32,000 nt of DNA from an uncultured Methylococcaceae bacterium (GTDB lineage Bacteria; Pseudomonadota; Gammaproteobacteria; Methylococcales; Methylomonadaceae). Position 1 is the stretch's first letter. The number at the start of each line of letters is the position of its first letter. The stretch is from the NCBI GenBank assembly GCA_903917345.1, contig CAIXAE010000036.1, positions 43,604-75,603 of the forward strand. Direction: 5' to 3'. Shown piece by piece: positions 2,815 through 24,295 of the stretch. The translations under genes and the position numbers were made by a program. The notes beneath the pieces are model-generated. The model saw only the letters and a list, made by a program, of their open reading frames with translations, was not told the DNA's origin and searched no databases.

Positions 2815-2840
2815 CTTGATTACAACGAATAGGCTGTATC

Positions 2841-6298: not shown

Positions 6299-9200
6299 GT
6301 TAACTGCCTCTTTATCAGATCTTCTAACTTATCAAAGCAATCTATAGTATCCGGATGGACAGCACCCAAAACCTTTTCATGAATTGCTATGGCACGTCGA
6401 TATAGCATTTCCGCCTCAACATAATTCCCTTGATCAGATAACAATAATGCTAAATTTTCGACACTAATAACAGTATCAGGATGTTCATTTCCCAAAACTT
6501 GTTCACGTATTGAAAGCACAATACGACTTAAAGTTAGAGCTTCAGTGTAACTACCTTGTTCATAAAACAAACTAGCTAAATTGTTATAACTGGTTGCTAT
6601 ATCTGGATGACTTGTACCTAAAGAACTTTCATTGATTGCTAATACACGTCGATAAAATGATTCTGCAAGATCATAAGCACCCTGCGCCCATGATATAACC
6701 GCTAATGCATTAAGGCTTTGAACTAAATCTGGGTGATCTATACCAAATACATTTTCATGCATTCCTAACACACGGTTATAGTACATCTCTGCTTTTGCAT
6801 AGTCTTGCAAATAATATGATGCTTCAGCTAATAAATTAAGAGTTGGTGCTATGTGTAAATGATCACTACCTAAAACTCTTTCGTGTATTACCAATATTCG
6901 CTTAAAAAAACTTATTGCACTTTCAAAATCACCTTGATCATAAAATAACCCACCCAAATTATTAAGACTCATAATCGTATCGGGGTGCTCATAACCCAAA
7001 ACTTTTTCCCGTATCGCTAAAGTTTTACGATGCAACTCTTCTGAATCCGAATACATACCCTTATCAAATAACAAACTAGCTAAGTTGTTTAAACTCATAG
7101 CTGTGTGTGGATGCTCAGAACCGAGTACTTTTTCACTTATCAATAATGAACGATGATAAAGATCTTCTGCTTCTAAAAAATTTCCTTTATGGTGCAATAA
7201 AAGACCTAAGTTATTAAGGCTTGTTGAAATTTCAATGTGATCTCTACCCAATACCTTTTCATAAACTGAAATTGCTAGACGATAAAAAGCTTCTGACTCA
7301 TCGTAATTTCCTTGATTAAACATTACTAAAGCTAAGTTATTAAGACTAATAGCAGTCATGGGATCTTCTGGCCCCAATACATCTTGACGTATTTTCAACA
7401 CCTGACGATGAAGTACCTCTGCGTTATCGTAGTTACCTTGATCACGTAGAGTTTCAGCCAGATTATGAAGGCTAATAACCATATCAGGGTTATTAGCCCC
7501 TAATAATTTTTCACGTATATTTAGTGACTGACGATGTATTGACTCAGCATCCCCATAGTTGCCTTGTTTGCGTAACATCTCACCTAAACTGTTAAGACAA
7601 GTAGCAATATCAGCATGATCACCACCTAATATCTCTTCAGTAATTGCCAGCGAACGTCGATAAAGTGTTTCTGCCACTTTTAACCTAACAAATCTATTTG
7701 TAAAAAAATAGCCTAAATTAAAAAGTGTAAATGCTAACAACCCAGTATCTACAATATTTTCTGCCTCCCACTTTTCTAACGCCTCTAGGTAACACTGGCC
7801 TGGATCGTATTGATCACCCATTACCAACCAATAACCCAATAACGCCAAATCATCTTTTTCATATAGAATTGAAAACAGGGGTATAGCACTAATACAATCC
7901 TTTAAGGACTCCCATTGCTCGGCTTGTTGCCATTGCCACGGCAACTCTTCTGCTACACGACTACTTAATTCTTGATTATTAAAGTAGTGAGCTAATTTGA
8001 TATGTGCATTAGATTCCGCCTCTTTATTATTAAAACAATAGTGCTTAACTGCTAGCCTTAAGTATTCATGAAAAAAGTTTAATAAGCTCCCTCGTTTTGC
8101 TAGATGCGTATCAATCGCCATTAAAAATGTAGAAATACTCAATCGACTTAAACCAGTAATGCCGGCTATTTCTGTTTCAGATAGCCCGCGCCTAGCTGCC
8201 CACAGGGCTTGCATAATTTGGATAACGATAGCTTTACCAAAATCTTTCTCTAAGCGCTCTAGCACTAAGACGAATAATTCTTGGGGATTGTTGGCCGTTA
8301 ATAAGGCATCAATGCGCTGATCTAAGTGTTCAAAGTATCCAAAGATACGCAACTCTTCTAATACTGTTTTTAAAAACAGAGGGCTCCCTGTTTGAGGCGC
8401 TTGTGCAATGCATCGTGTTTGTTGAATCGATAAAGCTTTGCGATAAGTCGCCAACCAATCACGGATTAATTGCTCTTTACGTTTTACATCCAGCGCTTCT
8501 AAAGTATGAATAGGCCAGTTTCGTTGACTTAATAACTCTAATTGATCGCCAGGAATAACACTAAAAATAGCCGTTACATTTTCCTGCCAAAAAGTAGGTA
8601 GCCATAGGCACTCTTTGCTTTCTAATTGATTAATGCCATCAATAATCAACAACAAAGGATCTTGCTCACTTACTTTTGCCAACCATAAGGGAAAATCTCT
8701 AATCACATCTTCAGGAGTACTGGGTAAATCTTGCCCATCATTTAAACGATGTTTTATTTCAGACATTATCCGGTACACAATAGCCACTGGATCAACATCA
8801 CCCGATATACCGATATAATGTTCAATGATAAATTGCTTAGGATTTGCAAGGCGTTGTTGACTGACCCAGTAAGCCAGCAAAGCCGACTTACCTGATCCAG
8901 ACTCACCTGTCACTAATAAAGCATGATTTGTTTTAGCCTGTAAAAAAGTATCTAACGCTTCAATATCTCTAGGATTCGCACTATAAGCATGGCAACGCTC
9001 AATTGCATAGCTACGATGAGCATCTTGTGCGGCCTTAAACGGTGTAGGTGTTTGGTCTAGTGGAAACTGCTTATCTAAAACGGCTAATAAATCAACTTTA
9101 ATTAACTCACCTAGTGCTTCTATACTGATGTAATTATCTCTAACAGGTAAACCACTACTGCGTAGCCTTGTTTTAAGCGTTGCTAATTTAGCTTTTAGTG

Positions 9201-9714
9201 GAGACTCTGTTTCAAAGTAATCATTAGACGCATTAAACTGGTCAGCTAATGATTGACTGAGTGCGGCGTCTCTTAAATAAAAGAAGCAGTGTTCAGCCAT
9301 ATCAGGGTTATCTAATACCCCATGTAAGATTTCCATCTCTGTGACACTTAAGCCGGCTTTTAAACTGTCTTCTAAGAAAGGAAATAAGCTGAGTAATTCT
9401 GCTTTATGATCTAAATCGGTATCTAAGGGTGCCCAACCATAGCGATCGCCTAATAAACTAACAAAGTAAGGTCGGCAGCGATTAATCTCTTCAAGACAAA
9501 TCCGAAGCACTTTGCCTTGTTCAGCTTCTTCTTGTGTGACACCCCAGCGCAAATCAATTTCTGTAAACTCTACCTGCCTATCACGACAAGCACGACGAAC
9601 AACAGGAAACACGTGACTCATTAAATAATGCCGCTCCTCTTGCATATCCCGAAAAGTTGAGGAGATAAAGACGCGTATTTCGCGATTAGTGTTGGTTTGA
9701 TGTGTATCTGTCAT
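6295..9714 (-). CDS. DUF4062 (TIR-like)-NACHT/STAND NTPase-TPR protein
   Basis: N-terminus IRVFISSTFRDMQEERHYL...FVSLLGDRYGW is DUF4062-type. Walker A is LLVTGESGSGKSALLAYW. The C-terminus has 11 diverged 42-aa kinesin-light-chain-type TPR units (..LG.xHPDT..SLNNLA..). Confidence 0.85.
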   Translation of the reverse strand: MTDTHQTNTNREIRVFISSTFRDMQEERHYLMSHVFPVVRRACRDRQVEFTEIDLRWGVTQEEAEQGKVLRICLEEINRCRPYFVSLLGDRYGWAPLDTDLDHKAELLSLFPFLEDSLKAGLSVTEMEILHGVLDNPDMAEHCFFYLRDAALSQSLADQFNASNDYFETESPLKAKLATLKTRLRSSGLPVRDNYISIEALGELIKVDLLAVLDKQFPLDQTPTPFKAAQDAHRSYAIERCHAYSANPRDIEALDTFLQAKTNHALLVTGESGSGKSALLAYWVSQQRLANPKQFIIEHYIGISGDVDPVAIVYRIMSEIKHRLNDGQDLPSTPEDVIRDFPLWLAKVSEQDPLLLIIDGINQLESKECLWLPTFWQENVTAIFSVIPGDQLELLSQRNWPIHTLEALDVKRKEQLIRDWLATYRKALSIQQTRCIAQAPQTGSPLFLKTVLEELRIFGYFEHLDQRIDALLTANNPQELFVLVLERLEKDFGKAIVIQIMQALWAARRGLSETEIAGITGLSRLSISTFLMAIDTHLAKRGSLLNFFHEYLRLAVKHYCFNNKEAESNAHIKLAHYFNNQELSSRVAEELPWQWQQAEQWESLKDCISAIPLFSILYEKDDLALLGYWLVMGDQYDPGQCYLEALEKWEAENIVDTGLLAFTLFNLGYFFTNRFVRLKVAETLYRRSLAITEEILGGDHADIATCLNSLGEMLRKQGNYGDAESIHRQSLNIREKLLGANNPDMVISLHNLAETLRDQGNYDNAEVLHRQVLKIRQDVLGPEDPMTAISLNNLALVMFNQGNYDESEAFYRLAISVYEKVLGRDHIEISTSLNNLGLLLHHKGNFLEAEDLYHRSLLISEKVLGSEHPHTAMSLNNLASLLFDKGMYSDSEELHRKTLAIREKVLGYEHPDTIMSLNNLGGLFYDQGDFESAISFFKRILVIHERVLGSDHLHIAPTLNLLAEASYYLQDYAKAEMYYNRVLGMHENVFGIDHPDLVQSLNALAVISWAQGAYDLAESFYRRVLAINESSLGTSHPDIATSYNNLASLFYEQGSYTEALTLSRIVLSIREQVLGNEHPDTVISVENLALLLSDQGNYVEAEMLYRRAIAIHEKVLGAVHPDTIDCFDKLEDLIKRQLT

Positions 9715-9761
9715 GAGGAGAGCTACGGCACTAGAAAGTTTGAATTTTACACCTTGGGTGA

Positions 9762-10013
9762 GTGGCGTTAAAATTTTCTAATAAAGCTTATGACCGAGGC
9801 AGTGAGTACGCCCATTTTCGTAAAATTGCTTCATTACGAGAATATCTATTGGTCGCACAAGACCAGCCTAACATCGAACGCTATGTGCGACAAGGCTACG
9901 TTTGGATATTATCAGAAGTAACGGGAATTGAGGCCACCATGTCATTAGATAGCATCGACTGCATGCTTAGTTTACGTGAGGTTTATGACAAGGTTATGGA
10001 TGATTTTGATTAA
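9762..10013 (+). pseudogene. C-terminal fragment of a Uma2-family (DUF820) endonuclease
   Basis: 83 codons starting at GTG. DRGSEYAHFRKIASLREYLLVAQDQPNIERYVRQ matches the C-terminal half of Uma2 proteins (D..K..Y...EY.LV.Q....E.Y). The N-terminal half is absent. Confidence 0.5.
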
Positions 10014-10175
10014 TAAAACAGTGGTAGATTCCCTATTATTATTTTAAAAAGACTGTGATATGGCTTGAAAACTCATCTCTTTAAATTTAATACCGAAAAT
10101 TAACTAAAAATATCCGTTAAAATTATAAATAATCTCCTATATTAATATTACGTTTCGAAAGTATGGTTTTCTCCT

Positions 10176-10673
10176 ATGAGTTTTCAAGAAAAAATAAATT
10201 TATATATTGCAGATGGTTACAAAAAAACAATAACAAATCAGTCTGGACTTGACACCTATGTTATGTATAAAAACAACATAGTCGTTCGCATTGGGTCAGA
10301 TAGTTCCTATGACCATTATGCAAAGCTTATTAAAAGTAAAATAATTCAATCTAAAAATGCACCTATAATCACTAAACATGAAACTGTTTTGAATGTATTT
10401 GATAACACAAAGTTAGACTATACCTGCACCGAAATGGAACTACTGAATGAACTGAATGATGATGAGGCGACACGTTATAAGGAATGGATTGACAAAGAAA
10501 TAAATAATATTGTAGATAAAAAACTTGGTATAAGTGACCCTTTCAAAATTTTAGATTTAACACGTAAATTAGTTTTATATGCTCAAAAAAACAATCTTTT
10601 TCTTGATTTAGTGCAGTCTAAAAATATCATGAAGAGAGGTGAAACTTTTGTACACATCGATCCTTTCTCTTAA
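10176..10673 (+). CDS. hypothetical protein
   Basis: 165-aa ORF in a very AT-rich context. No secure domain recognised. Confidence 0.4.
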   Translation: MSFQEKINLYIADGYKKTITNQSGLDTYVMYKNNIVVRIGSDSSYDHYAKLIKSKIIQSKNAPIITKHETVLNVFDNTKLDYTCTEMELLNELNDDEATRYKEWIDKEINNIVDKKLGISDPFKILDLTRKLVLYAQKNNLFLDLVQSKNIMKRGETFVHIDPFS

Positions 10674-10834
10674 AACATGTAACAACCATAAAACACGCCT
10701 GCGCTCTATCAACAACTCTAATTTTGATTATCTGTGATTTATTGTGAGATTAGATATTATTTGACCTGTGTATTTAATGTTGATTGATATCTTTTATAAT
10801 ATCTAGAACTGCAATCTACCTAACTTATACATAC

Positions 10835-11431
10835 TTAACCATATATTTCGTCTACATTGCATGATTTGACGATAGAAAAAACTTCGTGTTTTTTATCGTA
10901 AACCACTCTTTGGAACACTCCGTTCAGACATTGAAAAAAATCATAAGCTGGAAAACATGAATATAATTCTTTATCTTCAAGCTCTATTACATTTGTATCA
11001 ATACCAAATTGAATTGGTTTTGTAAAAAACAAACCTAAGACCCAGTATGTATGAACATATATTTCGTTATAAGTCACTCGATTTGTAATAGCATTATAAA
11101 GTTCAAGTGGCGATGCCACATTGCCTGATTTTCGTGCTTGCTCCCTTAATACAGGTGTAGAACCGGTATCGTTAGGTGACGCAAGTGTAATTGATTCTGA
11201 AGTTCTGGGAGCTAAGATTACACCAAAATTTCCAGTGTAATTATTTACCGGCTGATCTCCACAGACAATTGTTGAACAGGAAATGTCATAATTTCCCGTA
11301 ATAACTTTGCAAATTTTTTCAATCGATCCTAATTGATTAGTTTGAGCATTGCCAACCAGTGAAACATAACTTGAACAATGCACTAAAACAGCATTATTTT
11401 TTTTCAATACATCGATATATGAAGTAGGCAT
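10835..11431 (-). CDS. hypothetical protein
   Basis: 198-aa ORF, 58 nt downstream of the Cys-rich ORF on the same strand. No domain recognised. Confidence 0.45.
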   Translation of the reverse strand: MPTSYIDVLKKNNAVLVHCSSYVSLVGNAQTNQLGSIEKICKVITGNYDISCSTIVCGDQPVNNYTGNFGVILAPRTSESITLASPNDTGSTPVLREQARKSGNVASPLELYNAITNRVTYNEIYVHTYWVLGLFFTKPIQFGIDTNVIELEDKELYSCFPAYDFFQCLNGVFQRVVYDKKHEVFSIVKSCNVDEIYG

Positions 11432-11489
11432 GTATTATATTGGAATTGTAACTTGTAATTAATACCGCTAGTTTGAGCGGAAACAACTA

Positions 11490-11675
11490 CTAACAAAAAC
11501 ACTTATTTATTAAATTGCCACAGCAACCACAGTACTTTTCATTGGTTTTATAAGCGCCAGCCACCCGACTACTCTGGACATATCCTTTTGTAAGATGATG
11601 TCCACACATACGGCAATAATTATGACCTTGATTTTTGTATTCGTCGCATTCATTACACTTTTGATTTATACTCAT
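11490..11675 (-). CDS. small Cys-rich double zinc-ribbon protein
   Basis: There are 61 aa with CNEC..CRMC and CGCC..C(x)C pairs (KCNECDEY...YCRMCGH...YCGCCGNLINKCFC). Confidence 0.5.
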   Translation of the reverse strand: MSINQKCNECDEYKNQGHNYCRMCGHHLTKGYVQSSRVAGAYKTNEKYCGCCGNLINKCFC

Positions 11676-11782
11676 CCAAATAGCCTACCTATTCTAATCT
11701 AACGTGATATCAAACAAATTATCTTAAACTAAAAAATTACCCACCCCAAAAGAATTAACAAAAATAACTTAATCGATGAATT

Positions 11783-12046
11783 TTATAAACTAGCAATCCG
11801 TTCACGTATAAGCTCTGTAGTCGGATGATTTTCACCTAATGCTTTAATATTTATCGATAAGGCTTTTTGATAAACACTACTCACCTCTTCTATTTCACTT
11901 TTTTGTGCTAACGTAAAAGCAAGTAAAGATAAACTTTGGGCTGACTCTGCTGAGTTGGCTCCAAGTAACCAACAAACCTTCCGCATAATAATAGACAACT
12001 TATGAATAACCGCCTCCAGATATAAAACTGGCCCTTGGCTCTTTAA
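11783..12046 (-). pseudogene. remnant of the C-terminal TPR units of a STAND-TPR gene
   Basis: The frame is open from the stop at 12047-12049. It encodes ..GPVLYLEAVIHK..SAESAQSLSLLAFTLAQKSEIEEVSSVYQKALSINIKALGENHPTT.., about two KLC-type TPR units with no NTPase part upstream. Confidence 0.5.
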
Positions 12047-12222
12047 CTATATAACCCGTACCTAATAAATTAGGACAGAGGGGCGAAATGGTGTTTGGGG
12101 CCTTGGTGTCTCCCGGTTATTCTTAGCCAGAATAGTTCAAATAATACATTGATGTCAAATTCTAACCGTGAGTTGAATAAACGGTATCGCTTTAACTGCA
12201 CGCGATAATAAAATTAATATCG

Positions 12223-14910
12223 TCAAACGACTCGCATATCTTTTTGAAGATCTCTTAAATTCTCCAAGCAAAGCTTAGTATCAGGATGATCAGGCCCCAA
12301 CCCATGTTCAACAATGGCCAAAGCTCGAAGATAAAGCGGCTCCGCAGCATCATAATCACCTTTATTGTTAAGCAATACTGCGAGATTGTTTAAATAAGTA
12401 CCCGTTTTAGGATGATCAGGCCCCAACGCATTTTCAGTAATCATCAAGGCTCGACGACAGAGGTTTTCTGCTGCAGCATAATCACCTTTATCTTTAAAAA
12501 ATGTTGCGAGATTATTTAAATAAGTACCCGTTTTTGGATGATCGAGCCCTAATGCCTGTTCTGCAATCGCCAAGGCTCTACGAAATAGCGGCTCTGCGAC
12601 ATCATAATCACCTTTTTCATGAAGCAATAATGCGAGATTGTTTAAAGAAGTACCTGTTTCAGGATGATCAGGGCCCAGCGCTTGTTCTGCAATCGCCAAT
12701 GCTCGACGACAGAGGTTTTCTGCTGCAGCATAATCACCTTTTTCATGAAGCAATACTGCGAGATTGCTTAAAGAAGTGCCCGTATCAGGATGATCAGGAC
12801 CCAACGCTTGTTCTGCAATCGCCAAGGCTCGACGATAAAGTGGTTCTGCGACATCATAATCCCCTTGATCTTGAAGCAATGATGCGAGATTGTTTAAACG
12901 AGTACTCATATCAGGATGATCAGTTCCCAAGGCCTGTTCTGTAATCACCAAGGCTCTGCGAAAAAGAGGCTCTGCATTATCATAATCACCTTTTTTAGCA
13001 AAATACTGTAAATATTGCGCTAAGTTACTTAAAGTCACAGCCGTATATTCATGCTCTACCCCATAACATAACTCACTTAACCTGACGCCAAACCATCCCC
13101 AAGACTCTTGTTGCTCATGCTTAAGATAAGGTAATGTTCTTAGGTCTACTAGTTTTTCGATATTCTCACTGTATTTATCAACCGCCTCTTGATCAATGAT
13201 TTTTAAAAGCGCTTCATCCGACCACTGCTTTAATTGCTCTGGCAATTCCAACGCCATAAAGCTATCTAGGCAACTGACTAAATCCTCTGTCTGGGTAAAC
13301 TGCTCCCACAACACTTTACCTAACACCTCATGACCCTTTTCAACTTCTACAAAGTAATCAGCCCCGGCACTCTTCTCATCCAACAACCAATCTTGCAAGC
13401 TCTTATGAAACAGTGCAACGCCTTGCTCAGTAACGGTCAGGTAACTACCCAAGCGCTCAAGCACTTTAGAGCGTTGGCGTTTACTGTAATTTAATAAGGT
13501 TTCTATATCGCTGGTGGGAATAGGACGTGAAGATGCAACTAATATTTCCAATACCGGTAATAACTCTTGCTCATAATTATGGGTATCAGGGTATCGGTAT
13601 TTAAATTCACTTAAATACAAAGCACTCAAGCCTTTGGGCAGATCATTCAACTGTGTTATGTCGATTATATTTTGTTGAATGGCGGCTTGTAATTGCCTTA
13701 CATATAAAAAGTTACCTTGTGCGGCTGTTAATATCTGCTGTTGTGCATGGATTAAATCAGTTTGTTCTAAGCCTAAAGTGGGCAACCAATGTTGGATATA
13801 CGTTTTAACATCTTCTTGATTCCGCGGATCATCCGCGTTAATGTCATGCAGTCCAAATTGTTCTAATTGCCCACGAATTCCGGATTCTGGCCGACTAGTG
13901 ACCACCCACCCTAACCAATCGGGTAACTTGCTTAGCTGTGAGGCTATTAATTCCGTCAGTTCACTTTGACCGTTTTGTAAGGTTTCATCGAGCGCATCAA
14001 TAACAATCAATTGTCTGGGGCGATTGCCATTAATGGCATAGCGTAAAGGATTGGCTAATAAATAATCAAACAGATCCACTGGGTTCTTGCGGTCTAGGTC
14101 TTTTATTTCTGGTTGATTGAGCAGATGCCGACGATAGTCAGGTAAACGAGTCGCTAATTGAAAAGCAATCGAACGAATCACCCGTGTGGGGTCTCTGCGC
14201 TCAGGACTGTTATAACGACAAAATTGTGCCGCGATCACTTGGGCTTTATTGATGTGTGCCAGCCATGCTACCACCGCACTTTTGCCCATGCCTGGGCCAC
14301 CACTTAAACAAAAAATACGTGAACTTCTGTCACCTTCTCGCCAGATATTAATTTCATCCAGTAACCATTGCCGTCCGGTAAAGCCTGGCAAACGACTATT
14401 AATATCAGGGGTACAATCTAAGGGTAACAAGTACTCTTCAAGTTGACTAATCTCTCCAGCAAAACGTTGGTTATCAGGATGATCAATCACCGCACAGATT
14501 TGTGTAAAGCGCTCGGCGTACCAGACTTCAAAAGCATCTGGATCGCTTTGTTGACGCGCTTGCCAGTCGTGCATATCTAACCATTGCAAATGGCTCACCG
14601 ATATCGGCAGACTGACATCGACTTCGGGTTGAACCAGAATCGTAAAGACATAAGCTTTGCCGGCACCTAAGGCGATAGCGATTTCATCCCTACATACACC
14701 AGGATCACGGGTGGAATGCTCTGATAAAAAAGCCAGCACTTGATCACTCTCAATAATTCCTTCGGTGACTTCGCGTCGCCAATCGTCACCAAATTCAATA
14801 CGCTCACGATCTAACCAGACCTCATGACCTAAGTGGGCAAGATCGGTTTTAATCCGTAAGACTAAAGCTTCTGCGGCATTATCATGGCCGTAACTGAGGA
14901 AGATTTTCAT
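12223..14910 (-). CDS. TIR-STAND (NACHT/NB-ARC-like) NTPase-TPR protein
   Basis: The N-terminal TIR reads MKIFLSYGHDN..VWLDRERIEFGDDW..VLAFLS..CRDEIAIAL, with a candidate catalytic Glu. Walker A is FCLSGGPGMGKSAVVAWL and Walker B-like is LIVIDALDE. There are six near-identical 42-aa TPR units at the C-terminus. Confidence 0.9.
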   Translation of the reverse strand: MKIFLSYGHDNAAEALVLRIKTDLAHLGHEVWLDRERIEFGDDWRREVTEGIIESDQVLAFLSEHSTRDPGVCRDEIAIALGAGKAYVFTILVQPEVDVSLPISVSHLQWLDMHDWQARQQSDPDAFEVWYAERFTQICAVIDHPDNQRFAGEISQLEEYLLPLDCTPDINSRLPGFTGRQWLLDEINIWREGDRSSRIFCLSGGPGMGKSAVVAWLAHINKAQVIAAQFCRYNSPERRDPTRVIRSIAFQLATRLPDYRRHLLNQPEIKDLDRKNPVDLFDYLLANPLRYAINGNRPRQLIVIDALDETLQNGQSELTELIASQLSKLPDWLGWVVTSRPESGIRGQLEQFGLHDINADDPRNQEDVKTYIQHWLPTLGLEQTDLIHAQQQILTAAQGNFLYVRQLQAAIQQNIIDITQLNDLPKGLSALYLSEFKYRYPDTHNYEQELLPVLEILVASSRPIPTSDIETLLNYSKRQRSKVLERLGSYLTVTEQGVALFHKSLQDWLLDEKSAGADYFVEVEKGHEVLGKVLWEQFTQTEDLVSCLDSFMALELPEQLKQWSDEALLKIIDQEAVDKYSENIEKLVDLRTLPYLKHEQQESWGWFGVRLSELCYGVEHEYTAVTLSNLAQYLQYFAKKGDYDNAEPLFRRALVITEQALGTDHPDMSTRLNNLASLLQDQGDYDVAEPLYRRALAIAEQALGPDHPDTGTSLSNLAVLLHEKGDYAAAENLCRRALAIAEQALGPDHPETGTSLNNLALLLHEKGDYDVAEPLFRRALAIAEQALGLDHPKTGTYLNNLATFFKDKGDYAAAENLCRRALMITENALGPDHPKTGTYLNNLAVLLNNKGDYDAAEPLYLRALAIVEHGLGPDHPDTKLCLENLRDLQKDMRVV
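12240..13010 (-). repeat. tandem 126-bp (42-codon) TPR-coding repeats with a 252-bp higher-order unit
   Basis: The anchor aggatgatcagg (with variants) recurs at 12283, 12409, 12535, 12661, 12787 and 12913, exactly 126 bp apart. A 41-nt identical block sits at 12449-12489 and 12701-12741. Confidence 0.85.
14506..14910 (-). other. TIR domain of CDS 12223-14910
   Basis: The FLSYGH start strand, the W..E motifs and the conserved Glu in CRDEIAIA fall within the first ~135 residues. Confidence 0.75.
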
Positions 14911-16655
14911 GTGTTTGTGTCGGTTGCTATCATTAAATTAATGGCTTTTAACAAATGCGGAATATTTTGAATACTTTGCCTATCTTTTAGCTTTTCATCA
15001 GCGGGTAAGTCATCAAAATCCACTAAGCACGGATGAAATAACATTTTATTGTTTCTGATGGGAGCATATTTCCACCCAGCCAATCGTTTTTGGGCACACC
15101 ATCGCGCATGTTCTAAACGTTGTAAAATATTTAACTCTAATTCGGAAAAAACAAATGTCGGTGCATCTGGGTTGAGAGGCACTAATTTTCGACCAATCGC
15201 TCTTAATTTAATATCAATATGCGCGGCGGCATAACGATTGGAATCGCGTATAGACTCATCTAAATATGGCCAGGCTTCATTGATAGACGCAGCTGGATTT
15301 TTGTCTAAATAATCTTGATGAATAACTTGCGCCATCTGGTCTTTAGCATATTCAATTAAGCGTAAGACATCTCTATCTTGATCATCACCAACGTTATTCG
15401 CCTTATTTGAAAAGAGTGGGACAACCTGAATTTTCTTGTTATGTTGATTAAATTCTTGAAGTAAACTGCCGCCCGGTGGATCAACGACAACAATATTGTA
15501 AGACAAGCCGGCTTTTGAGCGTGCGATATCAATTTTCTTAGCAGAAATCACGTTACTGATTTCATTTTTAGTACAGATATAAACACAGCTAGGTTGATTA
15601 CTATCCCCAAATAACCTATCAATTTCAGGTTCTGGTAATTGATCAATACTGTTTTCTATTAATTTTATGTCTAACAACTCCAAGAATGCAGGATGGCGTT
15701 TAATTAACTGTTGATATTGCTGTTCAGCGTTAGCGTCAATAACCGTAATTTTTGGTTTATGGCCTCCACGATAATGGCCTAGTTGGGCCAAGTAAAATAA
15801 TACACTTTGGCCAATACTACCTAAGCCGATTAAAACCAAACGTATTTGCACATCATCTTGAGTCGCTATGCCACTATCAGGTGGATAATCATCTAGCATT
15901 TTTCTAGCGGTCAGCTCTATCTGATTAACAAAGCTGACTTTAACGACATCTTCAGGACTAAAGAAATCGACTGTCGATAAATTATGTTTAAGGTTGATAT
16001 CAGGCACATTGCATAAACATCTTAAAGTACTATCTTGCCCAGTGATTTTTAACGCTAACTTACACAGCGAAATATTATGTGCATAATCATCATTAAACGC
16101 TAATAAGCTGTGAGCTTTATTAATATGAGAGACTTCTAGGTTATGACTGTCATCACCCTTAGACAGAATAATAATGACACCATTTTTTCTAAGTAAAGAA
16201 ACATTGGCATCATCTAAAGAACTATCCGCTATTAGCACTACTTTTGTAGTCGACGCTAACACCACAGATGCCGCTACGGCGATATCATTTGAGCCATACA
16301 CAATAATGTGATTATTCAAAAACATTGACATGAAGCGATCTACGGTAAACCCCATTTGTCTTAAATAAACATGAATAATACTGGCCGCGATTGTTATCTG
16401 AATCAGCGCCGCCGACAAATTAACCAGAAAGGGGTCATCGCCATCCAAACTGAGTGTTGTACAAATGATGGTATAGATACTTTTACCTATACTAAAAAAA
16501 ATCGATTCATTTTCTACAGCATCTAGGTTTTTCCAAACAGCCAGAACAAAAACAATACCGGTTAATTTCCATAATCGAGTTACAAAGTTAGAGGCTAACC
16601 ATTCCAAAAGGTTATGTAAAATTGAGGACTTCTTGTTATCTGATACGGTGTGCAT
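14907..16655 (-). CDS. membrane protein: 2-TM channel-like N-terminus, two Rossmann (KTN/RCK-like) domains, C-terminal RyR domain
   Basis: The N-terminus has TM1 (LTGIVFVLAVW), a pore-loop-like SIYTIICTTLSLDGDDPF and TM2 (LSAALIQITIAASIIHVYL). The two Rossmann segments are IIVYGSNDIAVAAS and LVLIGLGSIGQSV. The RyR-domain signature is LEHARWCAQKRLAGWKYAP..FHPCLVDFDDLPADEKLKDRQSIQNIP. ATGA overlap with the TIR-STAND gene. Confidence 0.7.
   Translation of the reverse strand: MHTVSDNKKSSILHNLLEWLASNFVTRLWKLTGIVFVLAVWKNLDAVENESIFFSIGKSIYTIICTTLSLDGDDPFLVNLSAALIQITIAASIIHVYLRQMGFTVDRFMSMFLNNHIIVYGSNDIAVAASVVLASTTKVVLIADSSLDDANVSLLRKNGVIIILSKGDDSHNLEVSHINKAHSLLAFNDDYAHNISLCKLALKITGQDSTLRCLCNVPDINLKHNLSTVDFFSPEDVVKVSFVNQIELTARKMLDDYPPDSGIATQDDVQIRLVLIGLGSIGQSVLFYLAQLGHYRGGHKPKITVIDANAEQQYQQLIKRHPAFLELLDIKLIENSIDQLPEPEIDRLFGDSNQPSCVYICTKNEISNVISAKKIDIARSKAGLSYNIVVVDPPGGSLLQEFNQHNKKIQVVPLFSNKANNVGDDQDRDVLRLIEYAKDQMAQVIHQDYLDKNPAASINEAWPYLDESIRDSNRYAAAHIDIKLRAIGRKLVPLNPDAPTFVFSELELNILQRLEHARWCAQKRLAGWKYAPIRNNKMLFHPCLVDFDDLPADEKLKDRQSIQNIPHLLKAINLMIATDTNT
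14937..15143 (-). other. RyR (ryanodine-receptor repeat, PF02026-like) domain
   Basis: The pattern E-H-x-R-W...GW-x-Y...hP-x-LV-x-[FY]-x-x-LP-x-x-EK-x-x-DR is typical of bacterial RyR domains. Confidence 0.65.
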
Positions 16656-16664
16656 TTATTAATC

Positions 16665-17564
16665 TCAAAGTTTTAGTTCGTTCTGACAAATTAGGACGTC
16701 ACAAACCTGTTTCGCTGTAGGTCGTTGCGCAGGATTGGGGTTTAAACAAGCATTTAATGTATTTTCTAATACCTGAGGTGATTCTATTTCATTGACAGAT
16801 TGTTTGATTTTTATGGGTGAAAAATGCCCCATAAATGCAGCATGTTCATAGCTATCATCTAGATTTTTATGGAATGGATGCTCACCTGCTAACAATTGCC
16901 CTAAGACAATGCCGCAACTAAAAATATCTGATGCATGGGACGGCGTTTTATCATCAATATGCTCTGGAGACATATAGAAACTGGTACCTACATACCCCTG
17001 TAAACCATGCCAAGGCGCTTGCTTATCTGAAAAGAAAGACCAGTCTAAATCAATAATTCTTAATATATAACCACTGTCTACAGTAGTGTCAGGCATCAGT
17101 ATCAAATTATCTGGCTTTATATCGCAATGCACAATTTTATGGTCATGCAGGGCTTTAACTCCTAACATTAAGTCATTAGCAAACGTGAGTCTATCTGACC
17201 AAGTAAACTCATAATAATGCTCAAAACAATAGGCTAACGTTTTACTCCCATTGATAAACTCAAAGACTTGATAGAAATAATTATCTTCAAAGAACTCAAC
17301 AATTTTGTAACAGTGACTCCGTGTTTCACTATTATCTTGTATACATTTTTTTATTTTCTGCTGATGAGTAACATATTCGCCAAACCAGTCAATGATAGGC
17401 GTAGGAAATTTATACTGTTTAAAAAAGACGCGCTCACCTGTTAAGGATTTAGCTTTGTAAGCGATGGCAAAAGCACCACGACTCAGCTCTTCGATAATTT
17501 GATAACCGTTTTTAATAATCCCTTTAGGAAATAGTTCTGGCATAAATATAATTGAATAAGACAA
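16665..17564 (-). CDS. Hanks-type Ser/Thr protein kinase (kinase domain only)
   Basis: Gly-loop-like LSRGAFAIAY, Lys in VFFKQY, catalytic loop HCDIKPDNL, a DLD triplet in place of DFG, and GTSFYMSPE. There are 9 nt between its stop and the next start. Confidence 0.85.
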   Translation of the reverse strand: MSYSIIFMPELFPKGIIKNGYQIIEELSRGAFAIAYKAKSLTGERVFFKQYKFPTPIIDWFGEYVTHQQKIKKCIQDNSETRSHCYKIVEFFEDNYFYQVFEFINGSKTLAYCFEHYYEFTWSDRLTFANDLMLGVKALHDHKIVHCDIKPDNLILMPDTTVDSGYILRIIDLDWSFFSDKQAPWHGLQGYVGTSFYMSPEHIDDKTPSHASDIFSCGIVLGQLLAGEHPFHKNLDDSYEHAAFMGHFSPIKIKQSVNEIESPQVLENTLNACLNPNPAQRPTAKQVCDVLICQNELKL

Positions 17565-17780
17565 ATATAATCAGTGAATACTAATATATAAATCAGTAAC
17601 AATGAAATCTTTCTTCTCTAACCTGCTTTAAGATTTTGCGCTAGTTAGAAAAAACAGTATATATCCTGAAAACGACAACTTATGTCCGTTACAATAAAAA
17701 AAACATGCTTTTCTTTTGATGTGTCTAACTAGACAGGTTAGATCACTAGATTTTGTGGGCATTTCTAGGATTTTGGGTAT

Positions 17781-18360
17781 CTTGCTGAAACTTAGGGTGG
17801 CGTGCTGAAACCTGAGGTTGGGCATTAAAACTTCAGCTTTTGAAATGCGGTACTGGTTTTAATGTTAGAACTTTTAGTGCTGGTTTGGCACTTAGGTTTG
17901 CGTTATTAAACCTAAATTTACTGGCTGGCACATGAGTTTTAATATTAGGCCGCAAGTTTAAACACTGACACAATAACTTGATTGTTAAACCTTAGGTTTA
18001 AGTCCGGGGCTTTTTGCTCGAGTATTGGAACTTACATTTGAATACGGGTACACAAGTTTGGCTACTGGAGCAAAGGGTTGAGTCTTGGTACAAAAGTTTT
18101 AGTGTGGGCATTCAAGTTTTATTCCTACCAAATAGAATTGGAGTTTGGCCCCAAGATTTTAAGAGTGGCACCCTAGTTTAATTGTTGATATTTAGGTTTA
18201 AGCGCCCAACCCTAGAATAAAGGCTTGGACCTCAAGTTTGAATGCTACCCCTCAAGTTTACATACTGGGACAGATAATTGAATGTTAGATCGTGTGTTTA
18301 ACTTTTAGGGCTGTTTTGAATCACGCACTAAAAAAGCTTTAAGTGTTGCACCTAAAGCTT
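17781..18360. repeat. array of 29 degenerate 20-bp tandem units in perfect register (non-coding)
   Basis: Written as 20-mers from 17781, the columns align with no indel. By hand count, col 18 is T in 27/29 units, col 6 is T in 24/29, col 19 is T in 24/29, col 11 is C in 23/29, and cols 7 and 8 are each G in 17/29. The approximate consensus is ArTnyTGGnACytAaGTTTr. Two related but out-of-phase copies may lie at 17741-17780. Confidence 0.85.
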
Positions 18361-18371: not shown

Positions 18372-18986
18372 TTAGTTGACGATTTTTAAAACGGGGACAC
18401 AAAATTCGGTAGTACCTGACGGAGTCACGGCAGCCACTCTGACGGCTATAATGCTACCGGGGTCTAAGCCTTTCATTACATAAGAAGCAGACGTTGTCAT
18501 CTCAACTGTTTTCCAATCTGTCTCTAATGTAGGAATACCTCCATTACCTATCTGCCAAATGTAAACACCAGCTGCGTATATGGCTTTGGTGATAAATTTA
18601 ACCTCACCTGGATGAACTCCATCAACCACAGATAATATTTGCTTGGTTACGGGAGGTAACTCTCTACTAATATTAAAACCACTACTTAAAAGCTTAGTTT
18701 CATCGCCATTTGCCACTTGATTAACATATTGCGCATACACTCTAATTATATTATCTAGCGCCGTTTCTTTATCATGCATTATTGATTTGGCCGTTTGGCT
18801 GCCATCGTCAGCGGCTATAACGGCTGCTTCTAACGCATCAATGGCTAAAGTAAACTCAGCCAAAGGAATATAAGGTTGTGTGTAAAAAGTATTAGCCGTC
18901 ATTTTGACAACAATATTGCGGCTAGCAATGATTTTTTCGCGGATAGGAAACTTAACAATATCGATTAGTGCTCTTAGAATCTTCAT
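18372..18986 (-). CDS. hypothetical protein with a C-terminal fibronectin-type-III-like beta domain
   Basis: 204-aa ORF. The C-terminal ~90 aa (VHPGEVKF..YIWQIG..DWKTV..YVMKGLDPGSIIAVRVAAVTPSG) has the FN3 strand pattern. The N-terminal half is helical and unassigned. Confidence 0.5.
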   Translation of the reverse strand: MKILRALIDIVKFPIREKIIASRNIVVKMTANTFYTQPYIPLAEFTLAIDALEAAVIAADDGSQTAKSIMHDKETALDNIIRVYAQYVNQVANGDETKLLSSGFNISRELPPVTKQILSVVDGVHPGEVKFITKAIYAAGVYIWQIGNGGIPTLETDWKTVEMTTSASYVMKGLDPGSIIAVRVAAVTPSGTTEFCVPVLKIVN

Positions 18987-19140
18987 GATCTTTTCCTGTA
19001 GTTAAATGTTTAAAGTGGTTTGTCACGACACTCACTATAGGCTACTTCCTGAAATATAAACTTTTATTTTCAATAATTTACAAAAAACATCAATGATTAT
19101 GCTGTTATTTTCGGCTATCTTGCTGATAAGTTACAGTTAT

Positions 19141-20277
19141 TTAAATTTCTTCCAAGGAATACCTTTTTTGATTAAGGGAGTATTTGGCGGCTTTAATAGC
19201 CGATAAAGGCACACGCAAAACCGTTTTATCTTCTACTTTTGGATTTAAAGCCGCGTTGGCAATGTTAACCATGTCATCCGCGCTCAGCGTTAAGGCTGTC
19301 GCATCTATAAAACTGACAAACCCTTTATGTACCAGATCTTTATTTTTATTTAACGTAATAATCACACTAGACACATTGCGTCTCCAACTAAACAGATCTG
19401 TTGGCAGTTTAATGACAGATTCAATCCAGTCTTCATCAACGATCATTTTTTTGATTTTTGCATCATAAGACCCTTTATCTAAGAATCTTGTGGGTAATGC
19501 CAATAACACTTTTCCCTGTGCATGCGTATGAAATAAGCCAAACTGTAGCCATAATGATTCCATCGTATATTTAGCATTTTCAACATTCAGCAACTTATAA
19601 TTAACCTGCTCAAGCTTTACTAATTCTTTCGCTGTAAATTTTGGATGATACTCTGGGGTAATCAGCACAAGATCGGCATTTTTGGGTATTTGATCAGGAT
19701 CTAAGAGATCATTCATATAAGAATAGGTTCCTGTTACCCCTTTTATAGCCATTAACTTTTTGCCGATGTCTGCCAGGCTGCGGTAATATTCAGTTAACTC
19801 AAGCTTTTCGGCATTCAACCCCCAACCCAACTGACCCAGACTCGCACAGGGGATAAACACCTGTTTTTTAGTATCGTGTTTAGTTAAGGCAAGCATCAAC
19901 GCCGAGATACGTTGGCCGTCATAAGCAGGGCGAAACAGAGCGCCAAACTGCTCATAATAATCAACCACCTCATCAGCAAATAATGAGAAATCATCAATAT
20001 TAGCCACTTCTTTAAGCAACTTAGCTAAGCCACTTTGAGAGGGTAATCGACTACTATGTTCTGTTCTTAGCACATGATTTTCTTGTTGTTTAAGCACGGC
20101 CAATAATCTAGGCGCCTGCTCTTCAAGTGGTAAATCAACAAGCGCCATAAACGTTTTAGGATCTGCTTTATAAGAACGCACCATGGATAAAAAAGTATTC
20201 ATAGTGCCAGAATGCCACCACCCTCCCGTAAATATAATGGACGGTGAAAAATGCTCTAATGCAGATAATATATTCAT
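19141..20277 (-). CDS. HsdM/N6-adenine-methyltransferase-like protein with degenerate motifs I and IV
   Basis: The C-terminal half matches the N6_Mtase pattern (LLALPTRFLDKGSYDAKIKKMIVDEDWIESVIKLPTDLFSWRRNVSSVIITLNKNK..FIDAT..YSLNQKRY). Motif IV reads DLVLITPEY instead of NPPF/Y (19648-19659). Motif I reads FIPCASLGQLG instead of DP.cGsG. Confidence 0.65.
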   Translation of the reverse strand: MNILSALEHFSPSIIFTGGWWHSGTMNTFLSMVRSYKADPKTFMALVDLPLEEQAPRLLAVLKQQENHVLRTEHSSRLPSQSGLAKLLKEVANIDDFSLFADEVVDYYEQFGALFRPAYDGQRISALMLALTKHDTKKQVFIPCASLGQLGWGLNAEKLELTEYYRSLADIGKKLMAIKGVTGTYSYMNDLLDPDQIPKNADLVLITPEYHPKFTAKELVKLEQVNYKLLNVENAKYTMESLWLQFGLFHTHAQGKVLLALPTRFLDKGSYDAKIKKMIVDEDWIESVIKLPTDLFSWRRNVSSVIITLNKNKDLVHKGFVSFIDATALTLSADDMVNIANAALNPKVEDKTVLRVPLSAIKAAKYSLNQKRYSLEEI

Positions 20278-20656: not shown

Positions 20657-20697
20657 CTGGATAATAGGCACTTCTACTTTCATGCGTGAGAATTGAA

Positions 20698-23898: not shown

Positions 23899-23908
23899 GA
23901 GAAACAGA

Positions 23909-24295
23909 ATGCCTAACGATCAATATTATTTCCATGAAACACCTAACTTTATGGAATTAGAGGCTATTAAAAGAGGATGTATCAGTTATGCCACTTACAT
24001 GCACCCTAATCCTATATTTTATAAGTATTACTGGTGGATATTCTGGAGTGGAAGTGCTTGTGAAGGTCTTCAATTTAGAAGCAATGAACATCGTTTATCG
24101 ACAAAAGCCGCTTTCGATTTAATGGATTTATTATCTAAAAAAAAAGAACCCCACATAATATACAACATAAGACTCCCTCGCTTAGGCTCTGATTCCCCCT
24201 TTGATACCAACTCTAAAAGATGGGCTGCAGATACCGAATGGGCGCCCGCTTATGATGATGATACCGACCCGGTTTATAAAGTGGGTTATAAATAA
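23909..24295 (+). CDS. hypothetical small protein (W/Y-rich)
   Basis: AGGAGA at 23897-23902 lies 6 nt upstream of ATG 23909. The ORF track's start at 23885 would overlap the AAA+ stop. No domain recognised. Confidence 0.5.
   Translation: MPNDQYYFHETPNFMELEAIKRGCISYATYMHPNPIFYKYYWWIFWSGSACEGLQFRSNEHRLSTKAAFDLMDLLSKKKEPHIIYNIRLPRLGSDSPFDTNSKRWAADTEWAPAYDDDTDPVYKVGYK

Follow-up and report, generated by a model that had tools for sequence, protein, structure and literature searches.

Two adjoining genes in the methanotroph DNA analysed here (the window, a stretch of 32,000 nucleotides), one encoding a RyR-domain membrane protein and the other a TIR-STAND protein, look, to judge by sequence, like a possibly undescribed bacterial immune module in which a TIR signal would act on a RyR-domain channel. 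No system combining a TIR-STAND protein with a RyR-channel-like protein was found in PADLOC, NCBIfam or the literature searched. The reading of the pair as a signalling system is supported by the domain identities, the coupling of the genes, the co-inheritance of the pair, the recurring linkage with TIR and DUF4062 genes and the conservation of ligand-contact residues.

Gene order and encoded proteins

The first-pass annotation described three same-strand genes, the first two separated by 9 nt and the last two overlapping at an ATGA, and both the ORF list and a direct reading of the junctions bear this out. All three genes lie on the minus strand and encode an accessory Hanks-type Ser/Thr kinase (16665-17564; 299 aa from TTG), a 582-aa protein with a 2-TM module, two RCK domains and a RyR module (14907-16655), which is the candidate effector or receptor, and an 895-aa TIR-NACHT-TPR protein (12223-14910), which is the candidate sensor and signal generator. 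The kinase probably starts at the in-frame ATG at 17543, the 292-aa product being called in a near-identical contig (L031). The TGA stop of the kinase gene is followed by the 9-nt spacer (16656-16664, minus strand; GATTAATAA) and the ATG of the RyR gene, and the stop of the latter overlaps the start of the TIR-STAND gene at 14907-14910 (minus strand; ACATGAAA). Scans of the locus for promoters and terminators gave results no better than those for shuffled sequence; from gene spacing only, we infer that the genes may be co-transcribed.

The Pfam search assigned TIR_2 (8e-20), NPHP3_N (4e-25), NACHT (5e-9) and six stretches each of TPR_10 and TPR_12 to the TIR-STAND protein. The TIR domain occupies about aa 1-122 (14545-14910, minus strand), NACHT/NPHP3_N about aa 177-380 (13771-14382, minus strand) and six TPR units of 42 aa about aa 628-885 (12256-13029, minus strand). 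The features previously pointed out in this protein hold: the catalytic-type glutamate E76 lies in CRDEI, which the alignment places opposite CWDEL of Cat1, and all related and partner TIRs retain it; the Walker A motif GGPGMGKS and the six TPRs are present in the translation. The best PADLOC matches of the TIR domain are effector-type TIRs (TIR-pAgo, SAVED-TIR).

In the middle protein, Pfam detected RyR (PF02026; 1.6e-9, 38.3 bits against a cutoff of 27.4, aa 515-576) and TrkA_N (7e-7, 30 bits against a cutoff of 23.8, aa 117-206). The AF2 model (pLDDT 75) matched the TrkA gating ring (1e-7), GsuK (2e-6), Slo1 and RyR R12 in a Foldseek search, as the first-pass annotation had suggested checking. 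Two Rossmann/RCK (TrkA_N-like) domains are located at aa 114-256 and about 270-415 (15411-16316, minus strand); the second has an intact GxGxxG motif (GLGSIG) with G277 invariant, and Pfam matches it weakly to Sacchrp_dh_NADP over aa 274-314. In GsuK, a 2-TM channel is combined with two RCK domains, and structures of it are available with NAD and with ADP bound. The RyR Repeat12-like nucleotide-binding module (aa 437-576; 14928-15347, minus strand) gave PDB profile matches to R12 of RyR1-3 and to the RyR protein of B. thetaiotaomicron. Structures of RyR R12 exist with ATP, ADP and AMP-PCP bound.

The N-terminal membrane module (aa 12-110; 16326-16622, minus strand) comprises, according to DSSP of the model and hhalign, an outer helix, a short re-entrant pore-helix-like helix, the acidic loop SLDGDD and an inner helix, with the helices at residues 12-42, 54-67 and 76-110. 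The hhalign comparison placed it in register with the pore helix, filter and inner helix of K+ channels. Meanwhile, the pLDDT falls below 50 at residues 42-64, the hydrophobicity of TM1 is only moderate, and SLDGDD, which takes the place of the filter, is poorly conserved and is not a K+ filter. The pore-like module is thus weaker than was implied earlier, although the RyR and Rossmann domains proposed with it stand. Of the profiles suggested for the locus, RyR, TrkA_N, TIR, NACHT, TPR and Pkinase pass the Pfam thresholds, and Ion_trans_2 was not detected in the RyR protein. The claim of an ion channel keeps its RCK-channel-like predicted architecture and lacks the selectivity filter; since the loop at that position is acidic, variable and modelled with low confidence, ion conduction by the predicted module is considered no more than plausible.

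Conservation of the gene pair and its surroundings

The conserved core consists of the RyR protein and the TIR-STAND gene. These two are inherited together and still overlap or almost abut at identities as low as 54% for the RyR protein and 62-70% for the TIR-STAND protein. TIR-STAND orthologues follow the RyR genes in four loci, with an ATGA overlap in L016 and L031, a 4-nt gap in L001 and a 17-nt overlap in L002. None of the three genomic contexts of the pair is related to another; in L002 the pair is on a TrfA/ParAB plasmid, and in L001 it is flanked by Macro and TIR-TPR genes. Many relatives carry an 8.0-kb insert between the two genes, with 109 nt of the TIR 5′ end directly duplicated on either side of it, and keep the full TIR-STAND gene downstream. 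Translational coupling is therefore dispensable, because the insert breaks it and neither gene is lost.

The window protein is a full-length member of a TM-RCK-RyR family of 2,219 clusters (50% identity, E<=1e-30), not all members of which are TIR-linked. The size of this family and the wider recurring neighbourhood were missed by the first-pass annotation. Among distant members (19-29% identity), a TIR-TPR, TIR or DUF4062-STAND gene lies nearby in five of the eight informative loci, a tally drawn up once the data had been seen. In L003 the RyR-family gene has a TIR-TPR gene next to it in divergent orientation, and an orthologue of that TIR-TPR gene (51% identical) lies 3.3 kb from the RyR-family gene of L014. 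L034 has a TIR_2 gene at a distance of 3 kb, and L020 has a DUF4062-STAND gene directly upstream.

The window locus is situated in a defence island; the neighbouring genes encode a caspase-DUF4407 protein, a DUF4062-NACHT-TPR protein, an N6 methyltransferase and an IetA-like AAA protein. The DUF4062-NACHT-TPR gene (6295-9714, minus strand), DUF4062 being reported as a TIR-like NADase, is overlapped by a small SLOG-like gene (5759-6298, minus strand), both assigned by Pfam; the whole pair spans 5759-9714. L036 has the same pair near an RyR-family gene of 29% identity, within a DUF4062-STAND-TPR/SLOG/caspase/DUF4407/OmpA block, and the pair is counted among the recurring neighbours of RyR-family genes.

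The kinase (Pkinase, 1.8e-34) has an intact catalytic lysine and catalytic loop, as previously noted: in the alignment with the solved Ser/Thr kinase chain 9ymt_A, VFFK corresponds to VAIK, HCDIKPDN to HRDIKPQN (a non-RD, HCD kinase) and DLD to DFG, the position of the alpha-C glutamate being ambiguous. The 9-nt spacing from the RyR gene is also found in L006, L009, L010, L015, L016 and L017. The survey of gene neighbourhoods upholds the expected co-occurrence of RyR with TIR-STAND genes; the kinase occurs only in the closest clade, at about 69% identity or above. It was not found in the 66% clade, which has a 484-aa unknown protein at that position, in either 54% clade (L001, L002) or in any distant TIR-linked locus, so the idea of an obligate three-gene unit does not hold. 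A conserved divergent phosphatase escaped earlier notice. This PrpA/PrpB-like Ser/Thr metallophosphatase (20686-21555, plus strand; Metallophos 1.1e-15, with NCBIfam Ser/Thr phosphatase matches below cutoff) directly adjoins the kinase gene in L006, L008, L011 and L016 (56-57% identity); in the window, two inserted genes and a repeat array lie between them. It is probably the counterpart of the kinase, and both are closest-clade accessories outside the core.

Ligand-contact residues and possible functions

Phage RyR-domain proteins bind or hydrolyse 2′/3′cADPR made by TIR proteins (PMC13232231; bioRxiv 10.64898/2026.06.04.730250). The window RyR protein matches 180 phage records, including RyR Tad gp68, to which its aligned region is 46.5% identical. 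The RyR module is collinear with gp68, in which H129/W132, K147/H154 and K170/D171 bind 3′cADPR (10.64898/2026.06.04.730250); all six contact residues are kept, the corresponding predicted ligand residues being H516/W519, R534/H541 and K557/D558. These positions are invariant in the family alignment A1. Together with the conserved coupled pair, they considerably strengthen the earlier suggestion that the TIR-STAND protein may be tied functionally to the RyR protein via a NAD-derived nucleotide. H516 and D558 also correspond to the catalytic dyad H75/D117 of RyDEP (PMC13232231), so hydrolysis instead of sensing might be the function of the module. Moreover, the residues are conserved even in family members with no TIR nearby (L012, L013, L033); given this, the huge family and the nucleotides bound by R12, the ligand may be a general adenine nucleotide and not a dedicated immune signal.

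The preferred explanation, held tentatively and at a little less than even likelihood, is a two-gene Thoeris-like signalling system in which an NLR-type TIR protein would make the signal and a membrane protein gated by its RyR domain would be the effector. The TPR array would recognise a phage cue, the NACHT ATPase would oligomerise, and the clustered TIRs would cleave or cyclise NAD+. As residue conservation suggests, the product, a cADPR isomer or ADP-ribose, would be bound by the C-terminal Repeat12-type RyR module; the architecture is consistent with a signal passing from the ligand through the tandem RCK ring to the 2-TM channel-like module, which would leave the cell depolarised or leaky and the infection aborted. 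The kinase and phosphatase may form a lineage-specific regulatory layer setting, for example, the threshold of the effector or sensor. Against this two-gene signalling stand the weak pore loop, the RyDEP-type H/D pair, the number of distant loci (only eight) and further points that also favour the genes being independent neighbours: STAND-TIR proteins are usually treated in the field as terminal NAD+-depleting effectors, the PADLOC matches are effector-type TIRs, the RyR family is very large, with L012 and L013 members among housekeeping-like genes, and the insert parts the two genes in many relatives. A self-contained Avs/bNACHT-like NAD+-depleting TIR-NACHT-TPR protein would then merely share the island with a nucleotide-regulated (ATP/ADP/NAD) channel or transporter regulator, defensive or physiological, in line with the binding of ordinary nucleotides by RyR R12 and GsuK RCK domains. 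This appears rather unlikely, as the stop/start overlap or near-abutment persists at 54% identity across three contexts unrelated to one another, a plasmid among them, the TIR/DUF4062 linkage recurs independently in clades only 19-29% identical, and the exact cADPR-contact residues are conserved.

It is improbable that the RyR protein serves as a buffer or an immunity factor and not as a killing effector, sequestering or hydrolysing any leaky products of the TIR domain in the manner of RyDEP and RyR Tad and thereby guarding the cell against auto-activation or resetting the signal. The match to the RyDEP dyad, the position of the RyR gene upstream of and overlapping a ‘toxic’ TIR gene, which is the typical antitoxin-toxin order, and the Macro gene in L001 (Macro being the domain with which the effector of type II Thoeris binds His-ADPR) agree with such a role, but two TM helices and a tandem RCK ring are needless for a sponge or hydrolase. 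The phage versions are small soluble dimers, whereas the whole 580-aa architecture is kept over thousands of clusters, and the minimal two-gene loci (L001, L002) contain no other consistent candidate effector. The obligate three-component circuit of the first-pass annotation, in which gating would require phosphorylation of the RyR protein or the STAND sensor by the kinase, much as PKA/CaMKII act on eukaryotic RyR, likewise has little likelihood. The intact lysine and both catalytic aspartates, the spacing kept in all close relatives and the conserved phosphatase speak for it; the distribution of the kinase, described above, speaks against it, and standalone kinases of such type are listed as single-gene defence candidates (PD-T4-6 models). 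The argument from the eukaryotic Repeat3-4 phosphorylation hotspot is not supported either, since the bacterial domain matches the Repeat1-2 (R12) nucleotide-binding module and not the phosphorylated R34 repeat.

Comparison with known systems

A survey of Thoeris types I-XI removed STAND-linked TIRs as terminal NAD+-depleting effectors; type X combines a TIR with the ‘ion channel’ effector ThsK, its signal being unknown, and type V a TIR with the channel-like DUF2270 and 3′cADPR (Yirmiya et al. 2025, 10.64898/2025.12.03.692087). The window locus resembles Thoeris, especially types X and V, in that a TIR gene adjoins a gene joining putative nucleotide-binding and membrane or killing modules, in its defence-island location and in the cADPR-family ligands expected. 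However, its TIR is the N-terminus of an 895-aa NACHT-TPR STAND protein and not a small ThsB, and the putative receptor is RyR R12 and not SLOG, Macro, DUF2270, DUF6650 or SLATT. RyR, TrkA and RCK are mentioned neither in the text of the survey nor in the parts of its supplements that were searched.

RyDEP (PMC13232231) and RyR Tad gp68 of Pectobacterium phage CB1 (10.64898/2026.06.04.730250) belong to the same Pfam family, PF02026, and their two-half module is collinear with that of the window protein, in which the H/W/H/D set of RyDEP is conserved. These small soluble dimers act for the virus by sequestering or cleaving the signal, whereas the window RyR module forms the C-terminal end of a membrane/RCK protein of the host whose gene is coupled to a putative signal-producing gene, and this setting suggests a receptor role.

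With TIR-bearing STAND NTPases of the Avs/AVAST and bNACHT types, the TIR-STAND protein shares the tripartite layout of an N-terminal effector-type domain, a P-loop NACHT/NPHP3_N and a C-terminal TPR array. Those systems are single-gene, unlike the window system with its conserved overlapping partner gene, and there were no Avs/AVAST or NACHT models among the PADLOC matches at E<=1e-3. The likeness of the kinase to PD-T4-6 and to Mad6 of MADS is confined to the generic kinase domain (best PADLOC matches mad6, 2.6e-37, and PD-T4-6, 6e-27; NCBIfam MAD6 score 82.7 against a cutoff of 460), and the MADS gene set is missing at the locus. The RyR protein has the same order of outer, re-entrant and inner helices and two tandem RCK/Rossmann domains as the RCK-gated 2-TM K+ channels GsuK and MthK and the TrkA ring, but it has no TVGYG-type filter and bears an additional C-terminal RyR module.

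A nucleotide derived from NAD, the product of a TIR or cyclase enzyme, is tied to an R12-bearing cation channel in eukaryotic RyR/cADPR signalling and to a Ca2+ channel in plant signalling from TIR-NLRs to helper NLRs. The likeness of the window system to both is conceptual, with an NLR-type TIR protein as the putative source of the signal. The pore and overall architecture of the 582-aa RCK channel-like protein are unrelated to those of the 5,000-aa eukaryotic RyR, and homology between the two lies only in the R12 module.

Gene arrangement and the RyR protein

The locus comprises three minus-strand ORFs, whose positions in the first-pass annotation proved to be exact: a gene of a Hanks-type Ser/Thr kinase (16665-17564), a gene of a 582-aa protein combining a 2-TM module, two RCK/Rossmann domains and a C-terminal RyR module (the RyR protein, of TM-RCK-RyR architecture; 14907-16655) and a gene of an 895-aa TIR-NACHT-TPR protein (TIR-STAND; 12223-14910). 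The 9-nt spacer between the kinase and RyR genes (16656-16664) and the ATGA stop/start overlap of the RyR and TIR-STAND genes (14907-14910), both noticed earlier, were read directly in the sequence. The promoter/terminator scan of the window was no better than that of shuffled sequence and, judging from spacing only, the genes may be transcribed as one operon. The initial domain assignments withstood the HMM check, since each domain exceeded its curated Pfam cutoff: Pkinase in the kinase, TrkA_N and RyR in the middle protein, and TIR_2, NPHP3_N/NACHT, a TANC1-type winged helix and six TPR_10/TPR_12 units in the last. The TIR domain (TIR_2 match 8e-20, Pfam) retains the glutamate pointed out previously: E76 lines up with the CWDEL motif of Cat1, and all relatives keep it. 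Via the ATGA overlap, this TIR gene with its catalytic Glu adjoins the gene of a candidate effector. A plus-strand ORF (12501-12944, 147 aa) lying wholly within the opposite-strand TPR-coding region was rejected as an artefact of near-identical 126-nt TPR units.

The RyR protein matches PF02026 with 38.3 bits against a cutoff of 27.4 (Pfam); PDB profile matches to the RyR Repeat12 domain (R12) ranged from 1e-18 to 1e-20, and Foldseek matches to 6uhi and 9ls7 were obtained. Phage proteins with PF02026 bind or cleave TIR-made 2'cADPR and 3'cADPR (PMC13232231; 10.64898/2026.06.04.730250). The contact residues are H75/W78/H100/D117 in RyDEP, a phage RyR-domain protein (PMC13232231), and H129/W132, K147/H154 and K170/D171 in gp68, the RyR Tad of Pectobacterium phage CB1 (10.64898/2026.06.04.730250). 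The RyR segment of the window matches 180 phage records, including gp68 at 46.5% identity, and both halves of the module are collinear with gp68. Alignment of the translated sequences revealed a one-to-one correspondence of H516/W519 to H129/W132, R534/H541 to K147/H154 and K557/D558 to K170/D171, and all six window residues are invariant in the RyR-protein family alignment. PF02026 and the conserved contact set are shared by RyDEP, RyR Tad and the window RyR module, in which ligand binding is predicted. This conservation of ligand-contact residues is the strongest single reason to think that the RyR protein perceives an ADPR-type nucleotide.

The AlphaFold2 model of the RyR protein, built on an 11-sequence alignment (mean pLDDT 75), has two long helices with a short helix and then a loop between them; two Rossmann/RCK domains follow, and the C-terminal domain is all-helical. 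The Foldseek search against the PDB found the TrkA gating ring (1e-7), GsuK (2e-6), Slo1 and RyR Repeat12 domains (about 1e-4); the alignment with GsuK, which possesses two TM helices and two RCK domains, extends over about 600 columns. As was found by hhalign profile-sequence comparison, the short helix and the loop align with the pore helix and filter of a bona fide K+ channel. MthK/GsuK-type RCK-gated K+ channels share with the RyR protein a 2-TM module followed by RCK/TrkA_N, but their filter signature, T-V/I-G-Y/F-G, is missing from it; the loop is SLDGDD, acidic and variable among relatives, and Ion_trans_2 was not detected by Pfam. The pore-like 2-TM topology proposed in the first-pass annotation agrees with the model, TrkA_N, Foldseek and hhalign; K+ selectivity is unsupported. 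"Channel-like" is the accurate description of the membrane module, itself modelled at low confidence.

The whole TM-RCK-RyR architecture is a very large family: in an exhaustive HMMER search, E<=1e-3 was reached by 13,182 representatives and E<=1e-30 by 2,219, and at least 150 of the matches are full-length; longer members mostly contain extra RyR repeats only. Homologue searches with the RyR domain alone and with a 40-sequence family alignment gave almost nothing further. The tblastn search of plasmids yielded no records with the RyR protein and one record with the family consensus, and scans of viral contigs gave no match. In a locus of one relative (L019:93-2526), two TM-RCK-RyR genes stand in tandem, the first truncated by the contig end, a sign that paralogues have multiplied locally in one metagenomic lineage.

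Related loci and the defence island

The window derives from a methanotroph of Methylococcaceae type, and the loci closest to its own belong to Methylococcaceae MAGs. Relatives that are 84-99% identical demonstrate two layouts. The window arrangement occurs in L016 and L031, and in the second layout the kinase and RyR genes are followed by a 36-codon ORF and a DUF4062-NACHT-WD40 gene. This short ORF duplicates the first codons of the TIR gene and still overlaps the RyR stop codon. L015 contains a 109-nt direct duplication (11743-11851 and 19779-19887, 93% identical) with copies 8,036 bp apart, which indicates that the second layout is an 8-kb insertion. This 8.0-kb insertion lies exactly at the 5' end of TIR-STAND in L015 and also in L006, L007, L009, L010, L017 and L018; in L015 and L010 the block comprises the DUF4062-NACHT-WD40 gene and then a gene of a 338-aa protein with C-terminal TIR_2, and an intact TIR-STAND is located downstream in L015, L017 and L018. 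The insertion, the duplication and the persistence of TIR-STAND downstream refute the replacement of TIR-STAND by DUF4062-NACHT-WD40 in close relatives.

At 54% identity, an orthologous TIR-NACHT(-TPR) gene, 62-70% identical, is found directly 3' of the RyR gene in an unrelated chromosome fragment (L001) and a TrfA/ParAB plasmid (L002), both without the kinase. The RyR gene of the 66%-identity locus is preceded by a gene of a 484-aa protein of no recognised family and followed by an IS element. Among distant members (RyR proteins 19-29% identical), a TIR or DUF4062 gene is close to the RyR-family gene in five of the eight informative loci, a small sample counted after seeing the data. A TIR-TPR gene adjoins the RyR-family gene divergently in L003, and its orthologue (51% identical) lies 3.3 kb off in L014, the two RyR proteins being 71% identical; a DUF4062-STAND gene is located directly upstream in L020, a TIR_2 gene 3 kb away in L034, and L036 carries the same OmpA/DUF4407/caspase/SLOG-like/DUF4062-STAND-TPR block as the left part of the window. 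No TIR or DUF4062 genes occur near the RyR-family gene in L012, L013 and L033. A 2026 report describes DUF4062 as a TIR-like NADase yielding ADPR, and the DUF4062-STAND linkage, with linear ADPR as the reported product, keeps ADPR among the candidate ligands. The conserved unit is the RyR protein together with a TIR (or TIR-like) sensor.

In L001, a Macro-domain gene and a gene of a 947-aa ThsB_TIR-like TIR-TPR protein were also observed 3' of the RyR/TIR-STAND pair (8827-12499), and the TIR of this protein is related to the TIR-TPR proteins of L003 and L014 (phmmer E about 1e-29 to 1e-32). Pfam at E<=1 detected no domains in the upstream genes of L022 and L001 or in the small ORFs of the window.

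The kinase Lys and catalytic Asp, described earlier as intact, as well as the Mg-binding Asp, line up with their counterparts in a solved Ser/Thr kinase. The annotated TTG start is probably wrong by seven codons, since the near-identical contig L031 is called from ATG. The kinase and a divergent PrpA/B-like phosphatase are adjacent in L006, L008, L011 and L016, and the two are an add-on of the Methylococcaceae clade with a probably regulatory role. In the window they are parted by two minus-strand genes (18372-20277), encoding an N6_Mtase-domain protein (378 aa; weak matches to type I MTase and mad2 models) and a 204-aa protein without family, and by a repeat array. Because the phosphatase and kinase genes adjoin in related loci, this looks like an insertion carrying the array. 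The degenerate array (17741-18290, minus strand), located between the 204-aa gene and the kinase, consists of about 26-27 head-to-tail 20-nt copies with the consensus AAACnTAnGTnCCAnnAnTn, in which one A is invariant. At lags 20, 40 and 60 the autocorrelation equals 0.39-0.41, versus about 0.22-0.25 off-period, and the summed information content is 13.0 bits versus 2.7 +/- 0.3 in shuffles. Since its period cannot be divided by 3, the array is non-coding; TRF does not detect it, Rfam gave no match, and related loci lack it in the corresponding intergenic regions.

The locus lies in a defence island that spans about 150-24,300 (PADLOC/Pfam and gene content), and the right flank of the window contains Fae and H4MPT-pathway genes. 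The left part of the island includes an OmpA-like gene and three DUF4407 genes, of which one carries a fused caspase domain, and the island also includes a DUF4062-NACHT-TPR gene overlapped by a SLOG-like one. The kinase, RyR and TIR-STAND genes are accompanied by those of an N6 DNA methyltransferase, a Ser/Thr metallophosphatase and a double-AAA IetA-like ATPase. The latter, a 754-aa protein with two AAA+ domains, strongly matches IetA models of the IetAS system (6e-48), and its plus-strand gene is followed by an overlapping 136-aa ORF without family (21634-24295 together); no IetS-type protease was recognised. No RNA genes were detected in the window by Rfam or tRNA scanning.

A larger gene set recurs near distant RyR-family genes (window 152-9714; L036:617-10398; L034:1-9818). 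Its order is OmpA-like, a gene of about 210-220 aa, DUF4407, caspase (Peptidase_C14) and DUF4407-like, and it ends with a convergent SLOG-like gene overlapping a DUF4062-STAND-TPR gene; in the window the caspase is fused to a DUF4407 region. The phmmer comparison of window proteins with L036 gave 1e-78 for DUF4407, 8e-35 for the caspase, 1e-15 for the SLOG-like protein and 1e-11 for OmpA. The set may constitute a second system pairing a NADase with an effector, or a single large system with several effectors; literature searches returned nothing on it.

Proposed mechanism and alternatives

The most economical mechanism seems to be Thoeris-like, and it is put forward tentatively, at slightly less than an even chance. 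The NLR-type TIR-STAND sensor would oligomerise upon a phage cue, and a cADPR isomer or ADPR would be made from NAD+ by its TIR domain. This product would be bound in the R12 pocket of the RyR protein, the RCK ring would relay the signal to the membrane module, and ion homeostasis would collapse.

It is unlikely that TIR-STAND and the RyR protein are independent neighbours, a reading favoured by the large size of the TM-RCK-RyR family, in which TIR linkage is not universal, and by the view, followed in the Thoeris survey, that STAND-TIRs are usually terminal NADases (10.64898/2025.12.03.692087). If the link is co-location only, the locus remains an ordinary defence island, correctly annotated. 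The presence of the catalytic His/Asp pair of RyDEP in the window RyR module would suit a buffer or hydrolase of TIR products, which is judged quite improbable as the role of the RyR protein. The obligate three-component kinase circuit envisaged in the first-pass annotation is contradicted by the narrow distribution of the kinase and is considered very unlikely; the analogy with RyR phosphorylation (R34) was rejected as evidence, the conserved Ser/Thr of the inter-repeat linker being present also in kinase-lacking relatives.

Should the Thoeris-like mechanism hold, direct ligand gating could be tested by simple genetics and biochemistry in a compact bacterial protein in which an R12 domain is joined to a channel-like module and which is genetically coupled to a TIR enzyme. 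Direct action of cADPR on ryanodine receptors has been disputed for decades. STAND/NLR-embedded bacterial TIRs would be capable of producing a signal for a separate effector, and a function would be found for a very large uncharacterised family (more than 2,000 50%-identity clusters). In plant TNLs, TIR signal production operates with a separate effector. It is rather doubtful, in a broader sense, that TM-RCK-RyR proteins are host receptors for TIR/DUF4062 NAD-derived signals, being widespread cADPR/ADPR-gated bacterial cation channels. If so, one two-gene operon would display the logic ancestral to both animal cADPR-to-RyR signalling and plant TIR-NLR-to-Ca2+-channel immunity, the NLR-type TIR protein of the window would be a second-messenger synthase, not a terminal NADase, and phage RyR-domain sponges and glycosidases would be explained as captured copies of the host receptor module.

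Comparison with known systems

The RyR protein has neither a PADLOC model nor an NCBIfam family, and PADLOC gives only generic TIR and kinase matches for the locus. Full-text literature searches revealed no paper joining RyR and TrkA domains and none on a bacterial RyR-domain effector. The PADLOC match of the kinase to PD-T4-6/MAD6 covers the kinase domain only, and the NCBIfam MAD6 score was 82.7 bits versus a cutoff of 460. Unlike PD-T4-6/MAD6 defence kinases, the window kinase has no full-length match above the curated threshold and is not accompanied by their gene set. The Avs/bNACHT-like layout recognised earlier was confirmed for TIR-STAND, which combines TIR_2, NPHP3_N/NACHT and TPR_10/12 in one polypeptide and possesses the Walker A motif GGPGMGKS. 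However, curated models of these antiphage STAND families do not match it: all five PADLOC matches cover the TIR region (aa 2-115), none being an Avs/AVAST or NACHT model, and no NCBIfam match exceeded the cutoff.

The Thoeris survey lists 29 effector types, including the validated type X "ion channel" ThsK, whose signal is unknown, and removed Avs-type (STAND-fused) TIRs (10.64898/2025.12.03.692087). The signal-binding or effector modules described for Thoeris are SLOG, Macro, caspase-like, DUF2270, DUF6650, SLATT, CMP hydrolase-TPR, TIR-SLOG, ion channel ThsK and HIT; RyR and TrkA are not mentioned in the searched part of the survey (10.64898/2025.12.03.692087). No SLOG, Macro or DUF2270-type domain was found by Pfam in the RyR protein, which also has no PADLOC match. 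The tblastn search of plasmids with the type X TIR gave 10 records; six were inspected, of which H49 is without an annotated TIR or effector gene and the other five are type II, combining TIR with Macro. The full-text search for "ThsK" returned unrelated papers only. If ThsK is a TM-RCK-RyR protein, the novelty falls to a STAND-coupled variant of type X. The locus shares with Thoeris a catalytic-Glu TIR gene beside a candidate effector, but its TIR is not a stand-alone ThsB-type producer, being fused to NACHT-TPR (Pfam), a class that the survey excludes. On present evidence, the locus seems to represent a novel form of TIR-signalling immunity in which the receptor domain is new and the producer is of NLR type.
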